DNA from: Octopus vulgaris
Taxonomy: Eukaryota
Direction: 5' to 3'
NCBI GenBank assembly: GCA_951406725.2
Contig: OX597820.1
Coordinates: 122,946,001-123,010,000, forward strand
Length of the DNA: 64,000 nt
The position numbers were made by a program, and so were the translations under genes. Shown one piece after another: positions 2,707 through 50,645 of this stretch (position 1 is the first letter of the stretch; every line of letters begins with the position of its first letter). Below the pieces are notes generated by a model. It worked only from the letters and a program-made list of their open reading frames with translations. It was not told the DNA's origin and ran no database searches.

Positions 2707-4179
2707 ACAAGATATAAAATAATATTGTGGATTTAATTGACCTCTCCCTTAATTATTATAAGTAAAACTGGTTTAAACTAGTGTATCAATGCGAACAGGT
2801 GAAACATAAAATACTAAGAAAAAGATATTTCATCGCAGTCTCCAAGATTACAAGTCCGGGTATAGATTTGGAAAAGTCCAAATAAACCCATTCCAATGTT
2901 ACATATTCCTGCACATCACTAGTAGCTTCATTTATAGGATACTGTAGTTTCAGATACGATTCGTCTTGGTGTAACTGCAACGCCTGTCATCAATGGTTTC
3001 ATTAGTCGGAGTGAATGCGTAACAATAACAAGGTACGAAATAGAAAACCAATTTAGCACACTCTCGGTCATATGTATAAACACAAGTCAGTAGTTTAAAA
3101 TATTTTGAATATATATATATATATATATGATGCTATGAATTTGTGTTTAGTGGCGGTTTATGAGCATCATTGAACATAAATGAACCCATCTGAAACATAC
3201 ATCTTTGTGCCTAACAAATTATGAATGTGTAATCAAAAACACGGATGCTAAATAAGATAGACTGATGAAAAACAATTACAATATGAAATATAGGAAGGGA
3301 AGAATGATGGTTAGAAATTGCTTCTATAGCCTCAGCAGAATACGCTACAACTGATTATCAACTCCGTTGGGGTGAAATGGTTTCACTAAGTTGGTTAATA
3401 AGTGAATCATCGTGGGATATATAAAGCAGATGTTTGATAAACAGCCATGGTGTTTGCCATTCTGATCGAACCATTTTGCATTTACATATGATTTCATTAT
3501 TCTGTGATATTTTCTTTCCTGCTATAATTCATGTGTTGTGTGTTTCATTTATATTTCATGCCAAATAAGAAAGATATATTGATATATAATTATCTAGATA
3601 ATTATATGCAGTAATAAGGTTATTAACGTATGTGTATGCGAGTTGTTTTAACAAGGCAAATATAAAAATGTCCACAGATATAAGCAAACCTTTTTTATGC
3701 ATAAATATATTTGCTCGAGTATGCACATGCGTAGTGTGTGCTGTAGAGTTCCATTTCCATGTTGGCAGCCTATAACTACTTACTCATAGAACATAGATAC
3801 AGTTAAGCATTTAAGAATTTGATACAAAGAATTTCCACTGTTCGAGGCAAGCCAAACGATTCAGTGACAATGAATAGAAGTATTAGAGAGAATGGAAATA
3901 TAATAGCAATAACTGAAGAACGTCCTGCATTAGCTACCAGTCGGGTATATACATAAATTCACACACATACACACACACGCACATGCACACACACAGACTC
4001 ACACACGCACTCACACACGCACTCACATACGCACTCATACACAAACACGCATGCAGTCACACACGAACATGCACGCACGTGCATACACACATATACGCTC
4101 GCACAAACACGCACGTTTAGATATAATTGCTTGATGGATACCTTCTACGCCCTTGTTCCTGGGAGATAACAAGGATGAA

Positions 4180-4306
4180 AATTTATTCTTTAGTATTTCA
4201 AGATATTTTTATGTAATTTTGGTAAATACATCTGTTAAAATGAGATGTCAGTGTTATTTTCATTTTTGCGTAATCTAGACAACAGTTTATTCACCGCACC
4301 CCGTAT
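4180..4306 (+). mobile_element. Right end of Tc1/mariner (maT-like) element
   Basis: Clearly similar to 40495-40618, the right terminus of the DD37D element. Confidence 0.7.
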
Positions 4307-4627
4307 ATACACACACGCACACGCGCACGCACACACACACACACACACACACTCACGCACACACATATATAATGGTATTTTTTATAAACTTAAAGCGACC
4401 ACCGTACAAATGATTAAGGAAATAGTCTAATAATGGGAAATATAAGCCCGTCAACAGTAAAAAAAATGTCGGCTTTCCCGTAAGCGTGGGACTCGAATCC
4501 TCATCCCTTTGTGAACGTGACTAACTGTATTACCGATCACACCAGCGAACGAGCCTGCTATCAAATTTAAGTACTATATTAGTTGATAGTTGCTTTTGTA
4601 AACAAACTTTGTGCTTTCGGTACGAAT

Positions 4628-4899
4628 TACTCTACATTTAGGTATAGGAATAAACGCAACAGTACAGGGTTTAGTAAATTAACTTGGTATCTAAAAAACA
4701 GCAATAAACAATTTTATTTGGATTGATTGATTCTCTAAATTTCGATACCTTATGATAAAGGCAAGGAATTCTGTCTTCTCTGTAATTCTGCACTATTTTT
4801 TATTCTTTTTTTTCTAAAAATCCCCTTGTAAACACGGTTATAGAGCGTGCATACCGATGTAAACACTGGCAGAAACACACCATTAGTTCATATAAGTGA
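4628..4899 (+). pseudogene. Penelope-like element (Neptune-type) GIY-YIG endonuclease C-terminus, disrupted
   Basis: Manual translation YSTFRYRNKRNSTGFSKLTWYLK...PYDKGKEFCLLCNS..FFILF / NPLVNTVIERAYRCKHWQKH resembles the PLE C-terminal pattern STxLSKxIWxLK..PY..CxLC..LN..E..CRH; stops and a frameshift. Confidence 0.75.
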
Positions 4900-5119
4900 T
4901 ATTTATCATTATATATAATTTACACATTAATTTTCTTCTTACATTTCACATTCACTAGATATATCTTTTTCCAAGACTTTAGTTTACTCTCCTCTTTCTA
5001 TAGGTTATATTTGACACTATATCCTCAAACGTTTTTTTAAAACAAATTTAATAGCGTTCACTTAATCCCTATACATATCCATCATATTCCGTTAAAGTGT
5101 TTTATTGACGAGTTTCATT

Positions 5120-5203
5120 TCTTCATTTCCCTGAAGAGAAGATTACATTGTTTTACACCATTTTATTCCTTTGTGTTCGAAATTTGTGTCGGAAGTAAAA
5201 GAA
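5120..5203 (+). ncRNA. Minimal type I hammerhead ribozyme in PLE 3' region (degenerate stem III)
   Basis: TTCC-CTGAAGA(5131)-GAA...TTC-GAAA(5179)-TTTGTG-TC-GGAA; stems I and II pair; lies just downstream of the PLE ORF relic. Confidence 0.6.
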
Positions 5204-5240
5204 TTTGAATAACACCTGCGTTTAACTCCATTTATTTAGT

Positions 5241-5259
5241 TATATATATGTATATATGT

Positions 5260-5328
<69 letters not shown>

Positions 5329-5383
5329 ATATATATATACATATATATATATATGTATATATGTACATATATATGCATAAATG

Positions 5384-5414
<31 letters not shown>

Positions 5415-5537
5415 ATATATATGTCTATATATATATATATGTATATATATGTATATATATATGTATGTGTATATATATATATACATGTATATATATATAT
5501 ATGTATACGTATATATATGTATATACATACATGTATA

Positions 5538-5605
<68 letters not shown>

Positions 5606-5630
5606 TACATTTATATGTATGTATATATAT
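5241..5630. repeat. (TA)n/(TATG) microsatellite
   Basis: Direct reading; source of the YI-repeat ORFs. Confidence 0.95.
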
Positions 5631-5694
5631 GAATGGCTGGTATGTAAGTGTATAATTGTATTTCTGTATTTGTTTTTTTCTGCATTGTGTGAAA

Positions 5695-5780
5695 ACGTCC
5701 TGATGAGGCAAGTGTCAGTTTTAAAAATATTAACTATATCATATTACTTTGAACGTCTCGGAAACGGCCCGTATATGGAG
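5695..5780 (+). ncRNA. Degenerate hammerhead-like motif
   Basis: CTGATGA at 5700, GAAA-CGGCCCG-TA at 5761; stem I imperfect. Confidence 0.35.
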
Positions 5781-6607
5781 ATTAAAAATTTTTGTATTAT
5801 TTTCGTGGTATTTTAATACGTTCTTTTAACGTTCTATCATCTCAATTTTTTTTAATTACACCACAGTATTATAACTTTGAAATCTAAAATTCACTGTGTT
5901 TTATGTATCACATATGTATTTATCTATTTATACGTTGTTGTGGCTGTATGTAAAGTTACTGTATGTGTGTTTGTGTACGTATATGAGTTCACTCACTATG
6001 TTGTTTGTGTCTGTGCATTTTGTACAGTTTTTGTTACCTATTTATTTCTATTTCTTATATTTATCATAGGTATGTGAATATTTGTCTATTGCCGTTGAAT
6101 TACAGTTTGTACCGGGTTTTTTTTTTCACTCACTTCTGTCTTTAGTAGTGATGCTGCGTGGGGTCGTGCTGGATGTTATTATTCCATTCGTGTTTTCTGT
6201 TGAGGCTGGCTCGGTCTCTCTATTGGTGTGTCGTGTCAGTTCTATGAGATAATGATACCTTCATCTGTATGTTATTAACCGAGCCTCTAATGTTCTGCTT
6301 GAGTATGTTGGTAGAGCACAGACGTGCCTTACTCCTCTCTGATCTCCCGCCAGAGTTCCCTTAAACGCTCCCCTATACTGCTTGCGTCTCCCTATCATTC
6401 AATTCTGTAACACGACTGTCACTAGACGAACCTATTGATTGCGTAACACATGAAAGTACCAGTTTATTTCAATATTGTAAAATTGTGAAAACTGAAAATA
6501 ATAGAACGTAAAATTCAGACAAAGTTGGAATTTTATTGATTAAAATATTCTTCTGAACACAATCATACAAACCCGGATATATATTTACACACACACACAC
6601 ACATACA

Positions 6608-14189: not shown

Positions 14190-14446
14190 TACTCTTTTAC
14201 CCTTTTACTCTTTTACTTGTTTCAGTCATTTGACTGCGGCCATGCTAGAGCACCGCCTTTAGTCGAGCAAATCGACCCTGGGACTTATTCTTTGTAAGCC
14301 CAGTACTTATTCTATCGGTCTCTTTTGCCGAACCGCTAAGTGACGGGGACGTAAACACACCAGCATCGGTTGTCAAGCAATGCTAGGGGGACAAACACAG
14401 ACACACAAACATATACACACACACTCATATATATATACATATATAC
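14190..14446 (-). mobile_element. SINE family B, 3' part (split by the HHR array)
   Basis: Collinear with intact copies at 20878-21270 and 37718-38145 up to the internal TA microsatellite. Confidence 0.9.
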
Positions 14447-14447
14447 C

Positions 14448-17400
14448 TCACAATCAAGGAACGGCCATAATAGGCCATTCACCCACTAGAAATAACAGCC
14501 AAAAGCTTTAACCGCAAAATAACATTAATACCGTAAACCAGGAGAAAATTGAAAAACTTTTACCCTGTAATTTCTTAGACGATGCACCGTTTCATCTACC
14601 GTTTAATGGTAAACTAACCTGATTAAATTAAATCAAGCCAATCCACCATAGGCCCTTAGACTCATCAGTAAGAAATAGCCAAATCGGAACAGATATTTTT
14701 CACGAGGCATTCCTCTTGCTACCTCGGCAATATCTGACCTAAAATTTTCAAATCGTCGCACTCGCGCCAAATTTATCGGCAGCAAATAAACCACCGATTC
14801 CGTTACGGAACTAACCAGAAAATTCATAATTAATCAATATAGGGTGGCAAAAAAATTTTGTAGAATTCTTTGCCACCAGCGGCCTAGTAGGAAAAATTAA
14901 ATAGTCATAAACCATTTTTACGTTCAACATCACAATCAAGGAACGGCCATAATAGGCCATTCACCCACTAGAAATAACAGCCAAAAGCTTTAACCGCAAA
15001 ATAACATTAATACCGTAAACCAGGAGAAAATTGAAAAACTTTTACCCTGTAATTTCTTAGACGATGCACCGTTTCATCTACCGTTTAATGGTAAACTAAC
15101 CTGATTAAATTAAATCAAGCCAATCCACCATAGGCCCTTAGACTCATCAGTAAGAAATAGCCAAATCGGAACAGATATTTTTCACGAGGCATTCCTCTTG
15201 CTACCTCGGCAATATCTGACCTAAAATTTTCAAATCGTCGCACTCGCGCCAAATTTATCGGCAGCAAATAAACCACCGATTCCGTTACGGAACTAACCAG
15301 AAAATTCATAATTAATCAATATAGGGTGGCAAAAAAATTTTGTAGAATTCTTTTGCCACCAGCGGCCTAGTAGGAAAAAATTAAATAGTCATAAACCATT
15401 TTTACGTTCAACATCACAATCAAGGAACGGCCATAATAGGCCATTCACCCACTAGAAATAACAGCCAAAAGCTTTAACCGCAAAATAACATTAATACCGT
15501 AAACCAGGAGAAAATTGAAAAACTTTTACCCTGTAATTTCTTAGACGATGCACCGTTTCATCTACCGTTTAATGGTAAACTAACCTGATTAAATTAAATC
15601 AAGCCAATCCACCATAGGCCCTTAGACTCATCAGTAAGAAATAGCCAAATCGGAACAGATATTTTTCACGAGGCATTCCTCTTGCTACCTCGGCAATATC
15701 TGACCTAAAATTTTCAAATCGTCGCACTCGCGCCAAATTTATCGGCAGCAAATAAACCACCGATTCCGTTACGGAACTAACCAGAAAATTCATAATTAAT
15801 CAATATAGGGTGGCAAAAAAATTTTGTAGAATTCTTTTGCCACCAGCGGCCTAGTAGGAAAAAATTAAATAGTCATAAACCATTTTTACGTTCAACATCA
15901 CAATCAAGGAACGGCCATAATAGGCCATTCACCCACTAGAAATAACAGCCAAAAGCTTTAACCGCAAAATAACATTAATACCGTAAACCAGGAGAAAATT
16001 GAAAAACTTTTACCCTGTAATTTCTTAGACGATGCACCGTTTCATCTACCGTTTAATGGTAAACTAACCTGATTAAATTAAATCAAGCCAATCCACCATA
16101 GGCCCTTAGACTCATCAGTAAGAAATAGCCAAATCGGAACAGATATTTTTCACGAGGCATTCCTCTTGCTACCTCGGCAATATCTGACCTAAAATTTTCA
16201 AATCGTCGCACTCGCGCCAAATTTATCGGCAGCAAATAAACCACCGATTCCGTTACGGAACTAACCAGAAAATTCATAATTAATCAATATAGGGTGGCAA
16301 AAAAATTTTGTAGAATTCTTTTGCCACCAGCGGCCTAGTAGGAAAAAATTAAATAGTCATAAACCATTTTTACGTTCAACATCACAATCAAGGAACGGCC
16401 ATAATAGGCCATTCACCCACTAGAAATAACAGCCAAAAGCTTTAACCGCAAAATAACATTAATACCGTAAACCAGGAGAAAATTGAAAAACTTTTACCCT
16501 GTAATTTCTTAGACGATGCACCGTTTCATCTACCGTTTAATGGTAAACTAACCTGATTAAATTAAATCAAGCCAATCCACCATAGGCCCTTAGACTCATC
16601 AGTAAGAAATAGCCAAATCGGAACAGATATTTTTCACGAGGCATTCCTCTTGCTACCTCGGCAATATCTGACCTAAAATTTTCAAATCGTCGCACTCGCG
16701 CCAAATTTATCGGCAGCAAATAAACCACCGATTCCGTTACGGAACTAACCAGAAAATTCATAATTAATCAATATAGGGTGGCAAAAAAATTTTGTAGAAT
16801 TCTTTGCCACCAGCGGCCTAGTAGGAAAAAATTAAATAGTCATAAACCATTTTTACGTTCAACATCACAATCAAGGAACGGCCATAATAGGCCATTCACC
16901 CACTAGAAATAACAGCCAAAAGCTTTAACCGCAAAATAACATTAATACCGTAAACCAGGAGAAAATTGAAAAACTTTTACCCTGTAATTTCTTAGACGAT
17001 GCACCGTTTCATCTACCGTTTAATGGTAAACTAACCTGATTAAATTAAATCAAGCCAATCCACCATAGGCCCTTAGACTCATCAGTAAGAAATAGCCAAA
17101 TCGGAACAGATATTTTTCACGAGGCATTCCTCTTGCTACCTCGGCAATATCTGACCTAAAATTTTCAAATCGTCGCACTCGCGCCAAATTTATCGGCAGC
17201 AAATAAACCACCGATTCCGTTACGGAACTAACCAGAAAATTCATAATTAATCAATATAGGGTGGCAAAAAAAATTTTGTAGAATTCTTTTGCCACCAGCG
17301 GCCTAGTAGGAAAAAATTAAATAGTCATAAACCATTTTTACGTTCAACATCACAATCAAGGAACGGCCATAATAGGCCATTCACCCACTAGAAATAACAG

Positions 17401-17539
17401 CCAAAAGCTTTAACCGCAAAATAACATTAATACCGTAAACCAGGAGAAAATTGAAAAACTTTTACCCTGTAATTTCTTAGACGATGCACCGTTTCATCTA
17501 CCGTTTAATGGTAAACTAACCTGATTAAATTAAATCAAG
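14448..17539 (-). mobile_element. Hammerhead-bearing tandem array (retrozyme/PLE-derived), 482-485 bp unit x about 6.4
   Basis: Unit starts at 14448, 14930, 15414, 15898, 16382, 16865, 17350; the differences I found are homopolymer lengths; HHR on minus strand at 14570-14676, 15052-15158, 15536-15642, 16020-16126, 16504-16610, 16987-17093. Confidence 0.9.
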
Positions 17540-18084
17540 AGGCCGCTGGTGGCAAAAGAATTCTACAAAATTTTTTTGCCACCCTATATTGATTAATTAT
17601 GAATTTTCTGGTTAGTTCCGTAACGGAATCGGTGATTTATTTGCTGCCGATAAATTTGGCGCGAGTGCGACGATTTGAAAATTTTAGGTCAGATATTGCC
17701 GAGGTAGCAAGAGGAATGCCTCGTGAAAAATATCTGTTCCGATTTGGCTATTTCTTACTGATGAGTCTAAGGGCCTATGGTGGATTGGCTTGATTTAATT
17801 TAATCAGGTTAGTTTACCATTAAACGGTAGATGAAACGGTGCATCGTCTAAGAAATTACAGGGTAAAAGTTTTTCAATTTTCTCCTGGTTTACGGTATTA
17901 ATGTTATTTTGCGGTTAAAGCTTTTGGCTGTTATTTCTAGTGGGTGAATGGCCTATTATGGCCGTTCCTTGATTGTGATGTTGAACGTAAAAATGGTTTA
18001 TGACTATTTAATTTTTTCCTACTAGGCCGCTGGTGGCAAAAGAATTCTACAAAATTTTTTTGCCACCCTATATTGATTAATTAT
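17540..18084 (+). mobile_element. Inverted arm of the 484-bp HHR array (about 1.1 units)
   Basis: Reverse complement of the unit from AGGCCGCTGG; one substitution at 17635; followed by TSD TATACATATATAC (18082-18094 = 14434-14446). Confidence 0.9.
17750..17856 (+). ncRNA. Type I hammerhead ribozyme
   Basis: Stem I ATTTCTTA/TAAGAAAT; CTGATGA 17758; stem II GTCTA..TAGAT with long G-U-rich extension; GAAA 17833; stem III CGG-TGCA-TCG; GUC site, predicted cleavage after 17848. Confidence 0.88.
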
Positions 18085-18094
18085 ACATATATAC

Positions 18095-18258
18095 GACATC
18101 TTCTTTCAGTTTCCGTCTACCAAATCCACTCATAAGGCATTGGTTGGCCCGAGGCTATAGCAGAAGACACCTGCCCAAGATGCCACGCAGTGGGACTGAA
18201 TCCAGAACCATGTGGTTGGTTAGCAAGCTACTTACCACACAGACATCCCTGCGCCTAT
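18095..18258 (-). mobile_element. SINE family B, 5' tRNA-like head (continues 14190-14446)
   Basis: Matches 21106-21270; minus strand TAGGCGCAGG..TGTGTGGTAAGTAGCTTGC..GGTTC. Confidence 0.9.
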
Positions 18259-18511
18259 GTAAGAAAGAGCAGAAATAGTACCTCTTTTTCTTTAAAATGT
18301 ATTAATGTTGAGATTACAGTTTATGAAGGATTATAAACGGGTCATGCAGGTCCTTGCAAAGATGTATGGAAGATAAAAAAAAGATGTGGGAATAAACTGC
18401 ATTGGTAGCAGCATGAAGTTTAAATTTCATCAAAAGGAAAGTAATAGACGGTTCATAAAAGTTAAGCCTTTATAAAGGAACCCAGTCAGCTGGAGTTACG
18501 AGTAGGTAGTT

Positions 18512-18810
18512 TTGTTTGTTGTTTGTTCCTTCTCGAGCCATGCCTGGCTCATAGGGACCGGTTTCCCGGTTTCTTGGCGTATAGGTTCCCCACCTGGACG
18601 GGACGCCGGTCCGTCGCAGGTGAGCTGCAAGATGCAGGAGGAAAGAGTGAGAGAAAGTTGTGGCGAAAGAGTCAGCAGAGGTTTCGCCATAACCTTCTGC
18701 CAGAGCCGCGTGGACCCTAGGTGTTTTCGCTCATAAACACACACATCGCTCGGTCTGAGATTCGAACCCGCGAGTCCGCTGCTCTCACCACTAGGCCATG
18801 TGCCTCCACA
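18512..18810 (-). mobile_element. tRNA-derived SINE family C (V/Meta-like central domain)
   Basis: A box TGGCCTAGTGG, B box GGTTCGAATC; TSD GAGTAGGTAGTT; further copies at 36660 and 46528. Confidence 0.9.
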
Positions 18811-25348: not shown

Positions 25349-25380
25349 TATATATAGGGAGATACATATATATATATATA

Positions 25381-25953
25381 TATGTATGTATGTATGTAAG
25401 TATGTATGTATGTATGTAAGTATGTATGTATGTATGTATGTATGTATGTATGTATGTATGTATGTATGTATGTATGTATGTATGTATGTATGTATGTATG
25501 TGTGTATGTATGTATGTATGTATGTATGTAAGTATGTATGTATGTATGTATGTATGTATGTATGTATGTATGTATGTATGTATGTATGTATTTATGTATG
25601 TATGTATGTATGTATGTATGTATGTATTTATGTATGTATGTATGTATGTATGTATGTATGTATGTATGTATGTATGTATGTATGTATGTATGTATGTATG
25701 TATGTATGTATGTATGTATTATGTATGTATGTGTGTATGTATGTATGTATGTATGTATGTAAGTATGTATGTATGTATGTATGTAAGTATGTATGTATGT
25801 ATGTATGTATGTATGTATGTATGTATGTATGTATTTATGTATGTATGTATGTATGTTTGTATGTATGTATGTATGTATGTTTGTATGTATGTATGTATGT
25901 GTATGTATGTATGTATGTATGTATGTATGTATGTATGTATGTATGTATGTATG

Positions 25954-25984
<31 letters not shown>

Positions 25985-26060
25985 GTATGTATGTATGTAT
26001 GTATGTATGTATGTATGTATGTATTATGTATGTATGTGTGTATGTATGTATGTATGTATG

Positions 26061-26091
<31 letters not shown>

Positions 26092-26322
26092 GTATGTATG
26101 TATGTATGTACGTATGTAAGTATGTATGTATGTATGTATGTATTATGTATGTATGTGTGTATGTATGTATGTATGTATGTATGTAAGTATGTATGTATGT
26201 ATGTATGTAAGTATGTATGTATGTATGTATGTATGTATGTGTGTATGTATGTATGTATGTATGTATGTATGTATGTATGTATGTATGTATGTATGTATTA
26301 TGTATGTATGTGTGTATGTATG

Positions 26323-26353
<31 letters not shown>

Positions 26354-26358
26354 GTATG

Positions 26359-26389
<31 letters not shown>

Positions 26390-26493
26390 GTATGTATGTA
26401 TGTATGTATGTATGTATGTATGTATGTATGTATGTATGTATGTATGTATTATGTATGTATGTGTGTATGTATGTATGTTTGTATGTATGTTTG

Positions 26494-26524
<31 letters not shown>

Positions 26525-26693
26525 GTATGTATGTAAGTAAGTATGTATGTAAGTAAGTATGTATGTAAGTATGTATGTATGTATGTATGTAAGTATGTAT
26601 GTATGTATGTATGTATATATGTATGTATGTATATATGTATGTATGTAAGCATGTATGTATGTATGTATGTAAGCATGTATGTATGTATGTAAG

Positions 26694-26724
<31 letters not shown>

Positions 26725-26809
26725 GTATGTATGTAAGTAAGTATGTATGTATGTATGTATGTAAGTATGTATGTATGTATGTATGTATGTATGTATGTAT
26801 GTATGTATG

Positions 26810-26840
<31 letters not shown>

Positions 26841-26955
26841 GTATGTATGTATGTATGTATGTATGTATGTATGTATGTATGTATGTATGTATGTATGTAT
26901 GTATGTATGTATGTATGTATGTATGTATGTATGTATGTATGTATGTATGTATGTA
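25381..26955. repeat. About 1.57-kb (TATG)n microsatellite with recurring variant units
   Basis: Direct reading; TAAG, TGTG and TATTATG variants. Confidence 0.97.
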
Positions 26956-36545: not shown

Positions 36546-36659
36546 CTCCAAGCCTCAAAATACATGCTGACTAAATTATCATGTACCAGCTTGTTTGTTA
36601 TTGTTGTGCTAGTCGTATTAATGGTGGAAGTCCTATCATTATTTGTCGTAATATCAATT

Positions 36660-36966
36660 CGTTGTTTGTTCTTTCTCGAGCCATGCCTGGCTGATAAGGG
36701 CCGGTTTCACGGTTTCCTTGGCGTATAGGTTCCCCACCTGGACGGGACGCCGGTCCATCGCAGGTGAGCTGCAAGATGAAGGAGGAAAGAGTGAGAGAAA
36801 GTTGTGGCGAAAGAGTCAGCAGAAGTTCGTCTTTACCTTCTGCCGGAGCCGCGTGGAACTTAGGTGTTTTCGCTCATAAACATACACATCGCCCGGTCTG
36901 AGATTCGAACCCGCGATCCCTCGACCGCGAGTCCGCTGCTCTAACCACTAGGCCACGTTCCTCCAC
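36660..36966 (-). mobile_element. SINE family C
   Basis: Matches 18512-18810; TSD TCGTAATATCAAT. Confidence 0.9.
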
Positions 36967-46527: not shown

Positions 46528-46843
46528 TTTTTGTTTTGTTTGTTTGTTTCTTCTCGAGTCATGCCTGGCTCATAAGGGCCAATTTCCCGGTTTCTTTGCG
46601 TATAGGTTTCTCACCTGGACGGGATGCCGGTCCGTCATAGGTGAGCTGCAAGATGCAGGAGGAAAGAGTGAGAGAAAGTTGTGGCGAATGAGTCAGCAGA
46701 AGTTCGCCATTACCTTCTGCCGGAGCCGCGTGGAGCGTAGGTGTTTTCGCTCATAAACACACACATCGTCCGGTCTGAGATTCGAACCCGCGATCCCTCG
46801 ACCGCAAGTCCACTGCTCTAACCACTAGGCCATGTGCCTCCAC
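46528..46843 (-). mobile_element. SINE family C inserted in a family B fragment
   Basis: TSD CACCGTTAGT; degenerate family B sequence at 46432-46527 continues after 46850. Confidence 0.85.
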
Positions 46844-49879: not shown

Positions 49880-50645
49880 TCTCTTTTTTCCTTTCTTTTT
49901 AAATCGACCCCAGTAATCATAAGTACTAAATTTATCGGTGAAAGGCAAGTCGACCTCGGCGGAATCTGAACTCAGAACGTAAAGACGGACGAAATGCCGC
50001 CATGCATTTCACCAGGCGTGCTAGCGATTCTGCCAACTTGACGCCTTAACAATAATAATAATAATGGTTTCAAACTTTGCCACAAAGGCAGCAATTGGCG
50101 GGGGAGGGGCCAGTCGATTATAACGACCCTAGTGTTAAACTGGTACTTAATTTATCGTCTCCGAAGGGATCAAAGGCACAGTCAACCTGGGCGGAATTTA
50201 GACTGAGAACGTAGTGACGGGCGAAATACCTATTTCTTTACTACCAACAAGGGGCAAGACATAAAGGGGACAAACAAGGACAGACAAACGGATTAAGTCG
50301 ATTATATCGACCCCAGTGCGTAACTGGTAGCTATTTAATCGACCTCGAAAGGATGAAAGGCAAAGTCGACCTCGGCGGAATTTGAACTCGGAACGTAAAG
50401 ACAGACGAAATACCTATTTCTTTACTACCCACAGGGGCTAAACACAGAGAGGACAAACAAGGACAAACAAACGGATTAAGCCGATTATATCGACCACAGT
50501 GCGTAACTGGTATCTAATCTATCGACCCCGAAAGAATGAAGGCAAAGTCGACCTCGGCGGAATTTGAACTCAGAACGTAGCGGCAGACGAAATACTACTA
50601 AGCATTTCGCCCGGCGTGCTAACGTTTCTACCAGGTCGCAGTCTT
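49880..50645 (-). mobile_element. Head-to-tail cluster of about 4 SINE family A units
   Basis: Repeated core; matching junction CGAAATACC|TATTTCTTTACTACC near 50230 and 50413. Confidence 0.85.

Follow-up and report, generated by a model that had tools for sequence, protein, structure and literature searches.

The unit lengths published for retrozymes run from 150 to 450 bp in one account (PMC7229834) and from 51 to 972 bp in another (bioRxiv 10.64898/2026.07.22.740005). In their available text, both sources propose that retrozymes are mobilised by Penelope elements; the idea of a Penelope RT working on a circle rests there on co-occurrence and pseudo-LTR similarity, and Li, Clavereau and Pollet 2026 (bioRxiv 10.64898/2026.07.22.740005) regard the mechanism of retrozyme mobilisation as still to be worked out. 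The same preprint reports that 24 of 57 Xenopus retrozyme families match known elements. For Penelope elements themselves, PMC8557442 describes a one-ended tail, a 5'-truncated copy in inverted orientation and a bias towards TA, and the Poseidon element of Anolis is reported to nick and extend both strands in vitro, its tail being the stretch between two internal RT start sites (PMC11167929).

We analysed a 64-kb stretch of Octopus vulgaris DNA, hereafter the window, in which a hammerhead-bearing tandem array splits a SINE. Inverted insertions are also known from L1 twin priming, in which two nicks prime on one RNA to give a 5' inversion joined by short overlaps; in L1 the second site varies, each arm copies its own part of the RNA, and a poly(A) end is present. 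The class of the octopus element, a non-LTR retrozyme, is already known; its insertion footprint is absent from the available text of the retrozyme sources.

A retrozyme array inserted into a SINE

The tandem block has a period of 484 (6.4 copies, 99% matches), and its units differ from one another by single-base homopolymer indels only. It is followed by an inverted arm of 545 bp that is 99.5-99.8% identical to the tandem units and carries one substitution. The features of the locus are listed below, with unit positions counted from the base after the predicted ribozyme cut.

14202..14446, minus strand: SINE-like repeat, 3' part, ending in the CA/TA microsatellite that is the target; 84-91% identity to four intact window copies
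14434..14446, no strand: target-site duplication, left copy, from the overlap of the SINE halves
14448..17539, minus strand: the longer arm, of 6.39 units, with its outer end at site A of the unit (130-131 from the ribozyme cut) and its inner end at position 425
14572..14674, minus strand: the first of the six type I hammerheads that the long arm carries; sequence inspection gives core and stems, and RF00163 scores 22 bits, under its gathering score
15054..15156, 15538..15640, 16022..16124, 16506..16608 and 16989..17091, minus strand: the other five long-arm hammerheads
17540..18084, plus strand: the shorter, inverted arm, of 1.13 units, with its inner end at position 176 of the unit and its outer end at site B (236)
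17750..17856, plus strand: inverted-arm type I hammerhead; core from 17758, GAAA at 17833-36, stem III to 17847, predicted cut after C17848
17750..17757 with 17849..17856, plus strand: stem I of this hammerhead; 17765..17832: its long stem II
17980..18084, plus strand: "tail" of 105 nt between sites A and B, from the mapped ends, with a G-C-rich hairpin at 18032-18067
18082..18094, no strand: target-site duplication, right copy; first 3 bases common to the element end
18082..18257, minus strand: SINE-like repeat, 5' part, with A-box/B-box-like motifs (read by eye); 81-89% identity to four intact window copies

This arrangement bears out the original prediction of 6.4 near-identical units and 1.1 inverted units within a SINE whose halves remain collinear. 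The prediction had also named a 13-bp target-site duplication. The 13-mer is low-complexity and occurs nine times in the 64-kb window; the duplication is nevertheless real, since the SINE halves overlap by 12-13 bp on each of the four intact window copies to which both can be matched. The length of the duplication is less certain than had been claimed, lying between 10 and 13 bp because the first 3 bases at the right junction are common to the element end. One additional C, at 14447, stands beside the left copy. As had been anticipated, the unit holds no credible ORF (longest ATG frame 64 codons; GC 37%). The block is non-coding and without an LTR, belongs to a dispersed multicopy family and is flanked by a duplication of more than 4 bp, the features by which retrozymes are recognised. 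The suggestion that a 484-nt monomer would be unusually long did not survive comparison with the published range of 51-972 bp, at least as given in the available text (bioRxiv 10.64898/2026.07.22.740005).

The window contains several other repeats. A dispersed repeat of about 300 bp (87-88% identity) occupies 18510-18809, 36658-36966 and 46529-46843, the first of these copies beginning 250 bp to the right of the split SINE; a 184-bp unit is present in 2.6 copies at 50112-50595, and a 1.6-kb TATG microsatellite spans 25369-26955.

A dispersed family with two fixed ends in TA repeats

We searched the genome (2.8 Gb, 227 contigs) for exact junctions and found at least 422 for site A and at least 681 for site B, together with at least 956 exact 26-mers spanning the cut. 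The family comprises at least 681 dispersed insertions, nearly all in TA repeats. One contig (C1) has 35 site-A places and 51 site-B places, of which 10 of the former are paired with one of the latter, and extrapolation from this pairing gives a family total of roughly 1,000 or more.

Of the 160 loci that we mapped to the unit, 40 were chosen for their similarity, the window among them; 80 came from the first 100 site-A places listed, and 40 from the 41 site-B places on C1 that had no partner. The outer ends lie at two fixed positions of the unit 105 nt apart, A at about 131 and B at about 231-238 (near 236). Among the 125 inverted insertions (25 similarity-picked, 70 from the 80 site-A junctions taken in genome order and 30 from the 40 site-B junctions), 115 have one A end and one B end and 10 have one unclassed end; none has two A or two B ends. 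The longer arm may be either the A or the B arm. The remaining 35 of the 160 loci were scored as single-armed, a class that includes loci with a short inverted piece (e.g. L061, L224, L236), arms below 22 nt being unscored. Where two arms are present, the cDNA ends are joined through 0-4 bases of overlap.

In the first sample, at least five TA units lie within 20 nt of 57 of 65 outer ends, compared with 2.5% of window positions. This target hides the length of the duplication at most other loci; in the window it is imperfect, and the duplication is therefore readable there. The window copy is otherwise atypical only in its length, which 1 of 64 two-armed loci of the site-A sample equals. We looked for circularly permuted ends, which had been proposed earlier, and for a LINE-type poly(A) end, and found neither; the ends are those at about 131 and 236. 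The family shows a tail at one end, an inverted 5'-truncated arm and a TA target, as is expected of an element mobilised by Penelope, and fixed two-site ends with one of each are the Penelope "tail" signature. The pairs of the tail hairpin are kept in 100-105 loci, and the 105-nt tail may be a protein-binding region.

Some loci hold more than one insertion. L119 carries two separate two-armed insertions about 500 bp apart, and at L138 a 7-unit, 87%-identical array lies 300 bp from a younger insertion.

The predicted hammerhead has a conserved core and strand-asymmetric folding

Seven complete hammerheads are present in the window, six consecutive ones in tandem on the minus strand and one on the plus strand. 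Each has an 8-bp stem I, CUGAUGA, GAAA and a 4-bp stem III with a UGCA loop; stem II, about 68 nt in all, is a 5-bp base closed by G-U followed by a 19-bp helix with 6 G-U pairs. The core (CUGANGA / GAAA / UH) with stems I-III is that of a type I hammerhead, and reading of core and stems confirms the claim that every full unit has such a ribozyme with a TGCA loop III and a G-U-rich stem II. No version with the same stem III and a short stem II was found by a pattern search of the genome (0 matches), and no compact form with identical stem III was seen.

Rfam model RF00163 matches the six minus-strand copies only, at 22 bits against a gathering score of 34, probably owing to the long stem II. 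The remaining Rfam matches are microsatellite noise, and the Rfam search found no second ribozyme on the opposite strand. Folding is strand-asymmetric, in line with the view that the structure forms on one strand: the 141-nt hammerhead segment has a z of -2.4 on the ribozyme strand versus -0.44 on the other, and the whole circle folds at -141.8 kcal/mol with a z of -4.9 on the ribozyme strand versus -2.0. A TTCCGT/ACGGAA hairpin that had been proposed is not formed in the predicted circular fold. The core is mispaired in the predicted lowest-energy monomer fold, which has -34.7 kcal/mol where the hammerhead fold has -30.5. Twelve bases of stem III are complementary to themselves (-18.9 as a dimer, -0.9 as a monomer). 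Together these predict weak cleavage as a monomer and stronger cleavage as a dimer, behaviour that has been reported for axolotl retrozymes (PMC7229834, available text).

None of the 11 required core bases changes in the 88-93 loci compared, and variation is found at N7 (65 U, 11 C, 12 G) and at the cut-site base (64 C, 30 A). In three common changes a G-U pair becomes a Watson-Crick pair, whereas 30 of 88 loci have lost one of the stem II pairs. Comparison of these sequences supports selection on the ribozyme at the level of RNA.

We also observed an older related retrozyme family (L058:3742-4391; L192-L214) with about 70% identity and a CCGAUGA core, in which the letters of stems I, II and III differ yet, read by eye, still pair. 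It too has two-site ends in TA repeats, with site A seemingly shifted a few bases to another AT. At L058 a young copy sits within the TA run at the end of an older-family copy.

Some loci carry private alleles throughout their units

Among the first 120 loci, with homopolymer positions masked, units differ by 0.32% inside an arm and by 0.46% from one arm to the other, compared with 3.56% from locus to locus. In the same sample, 17 alleles are private, being confined to a single sampled locus, and fixed, being present in every copy there; 15 of them span both arms and 10 are in three or more copies. This combination of low divergence within loci and private fixed alleles points to a bottleneck of one monomer, most simply a circle. 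No excess of mutations was seen at the ligation junction in 40 loci, and no A-to-G excess that would point to RNA editing (2 of 27 rare fixed alleles).

Mosaics of lineage alleles were also present, with 22 cases in the first 120 loci; these could be polishing errors, template switches or conversion. In the mosaic arrays of L031, L034, L050, L051 and L068, one or two units have a 6-bp insertion or a substitution typical of another lineage.

Unit sequence also occurs in sequencing runs. DNA runs of two other organisms contain 56% of the sampled unit words, and 19 of the 24 runs listed, which are assembled contigs whose RNA label is guessed, contain at least half of them. Contigs cross the unit junction in all four runs examined; contigs cannot show strand, ends or circles, and since tandem DNA yields the same joint they are no evidence for a circle.

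Arm ends cluster just past the predicted ribozyme cut site

Inner ends of arms fall at unit positions 1-25 in 47 of 255 cases versus 14.2 expected (p 6e-13). The third, independent sample alone gives 15 of 56 versus 3.1 expected, and just upstream of the cut there are 8 ends versus 13.1 expected. The excess after the cut fits RT run-off from a ribozyme-cut 5' end, in which case the ends would record cleavage in vivo. Position 1 itself accounts for only 3 of these 47, and several ends are at 9-12 or 21-24, where short overlaps that attract joins may add to the count. A smaller excess (23 ends, 1.7-fold) is seen at positions 176-200.

Arms that reach the cut stop there in 47 of 373 arrivals, so that most templates must have been continuous across the site. 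Among arms with one cut site already behind them, the excess is also present (15 vs 6.0, p 0.001), with sample 3 alone giving a non-significant 2 vs 0.9. This later-pass excess is not predicted by a closed circle alone and, like the 22 mosaic cases, counts against a circle-only model; some insertions look as if cut linear RNA had been their template.

The inner ends of the two arms lie within 10 nt of each other in 23 of 110 loci versus 5.9 expected, the maximum in 20,000 shuffles being 16. In 19 of these 23 loci, arm B is 97-112 nt longer. Coincident inner ends with an arm B longer by about 105 nt are as expected if both cDNAs were made on one RNA.

Young Penelope elements are present in the same genome

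The genome contains two young RT + GIY-YIG Penelope families that end in TA repeats and carry a Cys motif already described in Neptune and Nematis. In 3 of 3 inverted Penelope copies inspected, one end only bears a tail, of about 35-40 nt. The retrozyme unit itself has no RT + GIY-YIG ORF of the kind that marks an autonomous Penelope element. BLAST against 20 Penelope loci of the two families gave no credible sequence in common with the unit (best E 0.097), and a motif scan of these 20 loci found no canonical hammerhead. None of the 160 retrozyme loci runs into a Penelope RT/GIY-YIG ORF, nearby fragments being separate insertions, in agreement with the earlier view that the unit is not merely the terminus of a coding Penelope element. 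The absence of sequence in common with these two families, and of a canonical hammerhead in them, weighs against the model set out below.

In one young family (L098:2518-3957 and 3876-6221, as fetched), a 479-codon frame lies upstream of and overlaps a 781-codon RT/GIY-YIG frame in -1 phase. The overlap is at a T-rich stretch ending in AG, with six T in 12 of 14 copies (L090-L103, L109), and could be a frameshift site or a splice acceptor. Copies of the second family (L104, L105, L157, L057) have 98-99% protein identity to one another and a one-end tail of about 35-40 nt.

A model for retrozyme insertion

We hold with high confidence that the window block is a young non-LTR retrozyme insertion mobilised by Penelope machinery. 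A fuller model, of one-event insertion by a Penelope RT/endonuclease with priming from both nicks and probably a monomer-circle template, is to our minds reasonably probable. Arrays would be transcribed and cut by the hammerhead, by prediction poorly as monomers and better as dimers through the palindromic stem III, and the monomers would be ligated into circles, as is expected of the class. A Penelope protein, presumably supplied in trans, would bind the 105-nt tail region and nick both strands of a TA repeat with a stagger. Copying would then begin at site A from one nick and at site B from the other. Both cDNAs would pass the cut site for 0-7 units or stop at what may be the cut 5' end of a linear template, and joining of their ends through 0-4 overlapping bases would produce the tail-out inverted structure. 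A more specific reading, in which a Penelope dimer clamps one ribozyme circle at the 105-nt tail while two cDNAs chase round from either side, is tentative, and we would place it slightly short of an even chance. If true, it would provide one mechanism for both animal retrozyme arrays and the tail-plus-inversion structure of Penelope, and the genome would record in vivo ribozyme cleavage as run-off ends.

The alternatives differ mainly in the template and in how the second arm arises. The same two-site Penelope priming might use only linear multimeric array transcripts, partly ribozyme-cut, with no circle. This would accommodate the end excess just past the cut (also in arms longer than one unit), the predicted weak monomer cleavage, the mosaic loci and the report that unprocessed RNA is the main Poseidon substrate in vitro (PMC11167929, available text). 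Daughters could then not exceed their source in length, however, and an allele of one unit would not become fixed in 3-7 copies, yet 10 such alleles exist; unit-specific alleles are mostly singletons (195 vs 18 in some copies), and alleles in at least two loci (27 of 136) are, by inspection, scattered single changes with no ordered sets in common. We therefore consider purely linear templates unlikely. The monomer bottleneck and the later-pass excess at the cut would both be accounted for if the circle were instead amplified from RNA to RNA, by a viroid-like asymmetric rolling circle, and a Penelope RT copied plus-strand multimers that have cut 5' ends and come from one monomer. RNA-to-RNA replication is stated for a plant retrozyme in the available text of PMC9695139. 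This route has a slim chance of being right, given that the Rfam search found no second ribozyme on the other octopus strand and that strand bias is not significant among the 27 rare fixed alleles (T>C 7, G>A 7, A>G 2, C>T 3).

A single priming event, after which the first cDNA folds back to template the second arm and the product is resolved at the other fixed site, would explain why private alleles are common to both arms and why 23 of 110 loci have coincident inner ends, which in some of them lie at short palindromes. They do not coincide in the other 87, and since either arm can be longer, each site would be needed as both start and stop; both strands are moreover extended in vitro (PMC11167929, available text). 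We regard fold-back as very improbable. Almost no credence attaches to a slowly grown satellite or an assembly artefact: the exact unit count could be wrong, but the duplication, the collinear SINE halves, junctions that obey a family-wide rule and hundreds of dispersed short arrays all speak against it, and the insertion as a single event, as first proposed, is supported. The preferred reading remains two-site Penelope priming, probably on a monomer circle.

For this young family there are counted genomic footprints for each step, and exact positions are predicted for the cut (after 484 in the unit) and the two starts (131 and 236), with TA as the target. The Penelope "tail on one end" becomes strict, and this limits the ways in which the enzyme can hold its RNA. 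With a short non-coding RNA and intact-looking Penelope frames in one genome, reconstitution in vitro should be straightforward.

Comparison with known systems

The octopus element resembles metazoan non-LTR retrozymes in its tandem non-coding units of a few hundred bases with one type I hammerhead each (Cervera and de la Pena 2020, PMC7229834), and, within the available text, in its GC below 50%, lack of an LTR, long duplication and self-paired predicted circle (PMC7229834; bioRxiv 10.64898/2026.07.22.740005). In both, Penelope elements are present in the same genome, and these sources propose Penelope RT as the mobiliser. It differs from the retrozymes described there in a stem II extended to about 68 nt with a G-U-rich 19-bp helix, and its fixed two-site ends, inverted arms, TA targeting and cut run-off have no counterpart in their available text; in PMC7229834 the words "inverted", "rolling" and "microsatellite" each occur 0 times. 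Nor were fixed two-site ends, inverted arms and a run-off excess reported for retrozymes in the literature listings searched, among which the term "twin priming" did not occur. Unlike 24 of the 57 Xenopus families in the preprint's available text, the octopus unit had no pseudo-LTR homology in 20 Penelope loci.

EN+ Penelope-like elements (Poseidon, PMC11167929; Neptune and Naiad, PMC8557442) share with the octopus retrozyme a partial tandem plus inverted 5'-truncated copy, a one-end tail, an AT-rich or TA target, a hammerhead near the ends and two internal RT start sites, as far as the available text describes them. Unlike them, the octopus unit lacks an ORF, its whole element is the repeat, and many rounds pass through one unit; its tail is about 105 nt, compared with 30-40 in those elements, and its strict use of one site of each kind is not stated for them in the available text of either source. 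The Poseidon start site in vitro is described as not homologous to the target (PMC11167929), whereas those of the octopus element end in AU and could pair with it, a difference that counts against our model. Unlike L1 twin priming, finally, both octopus sites are fixed and the two arms copy the same sequence.
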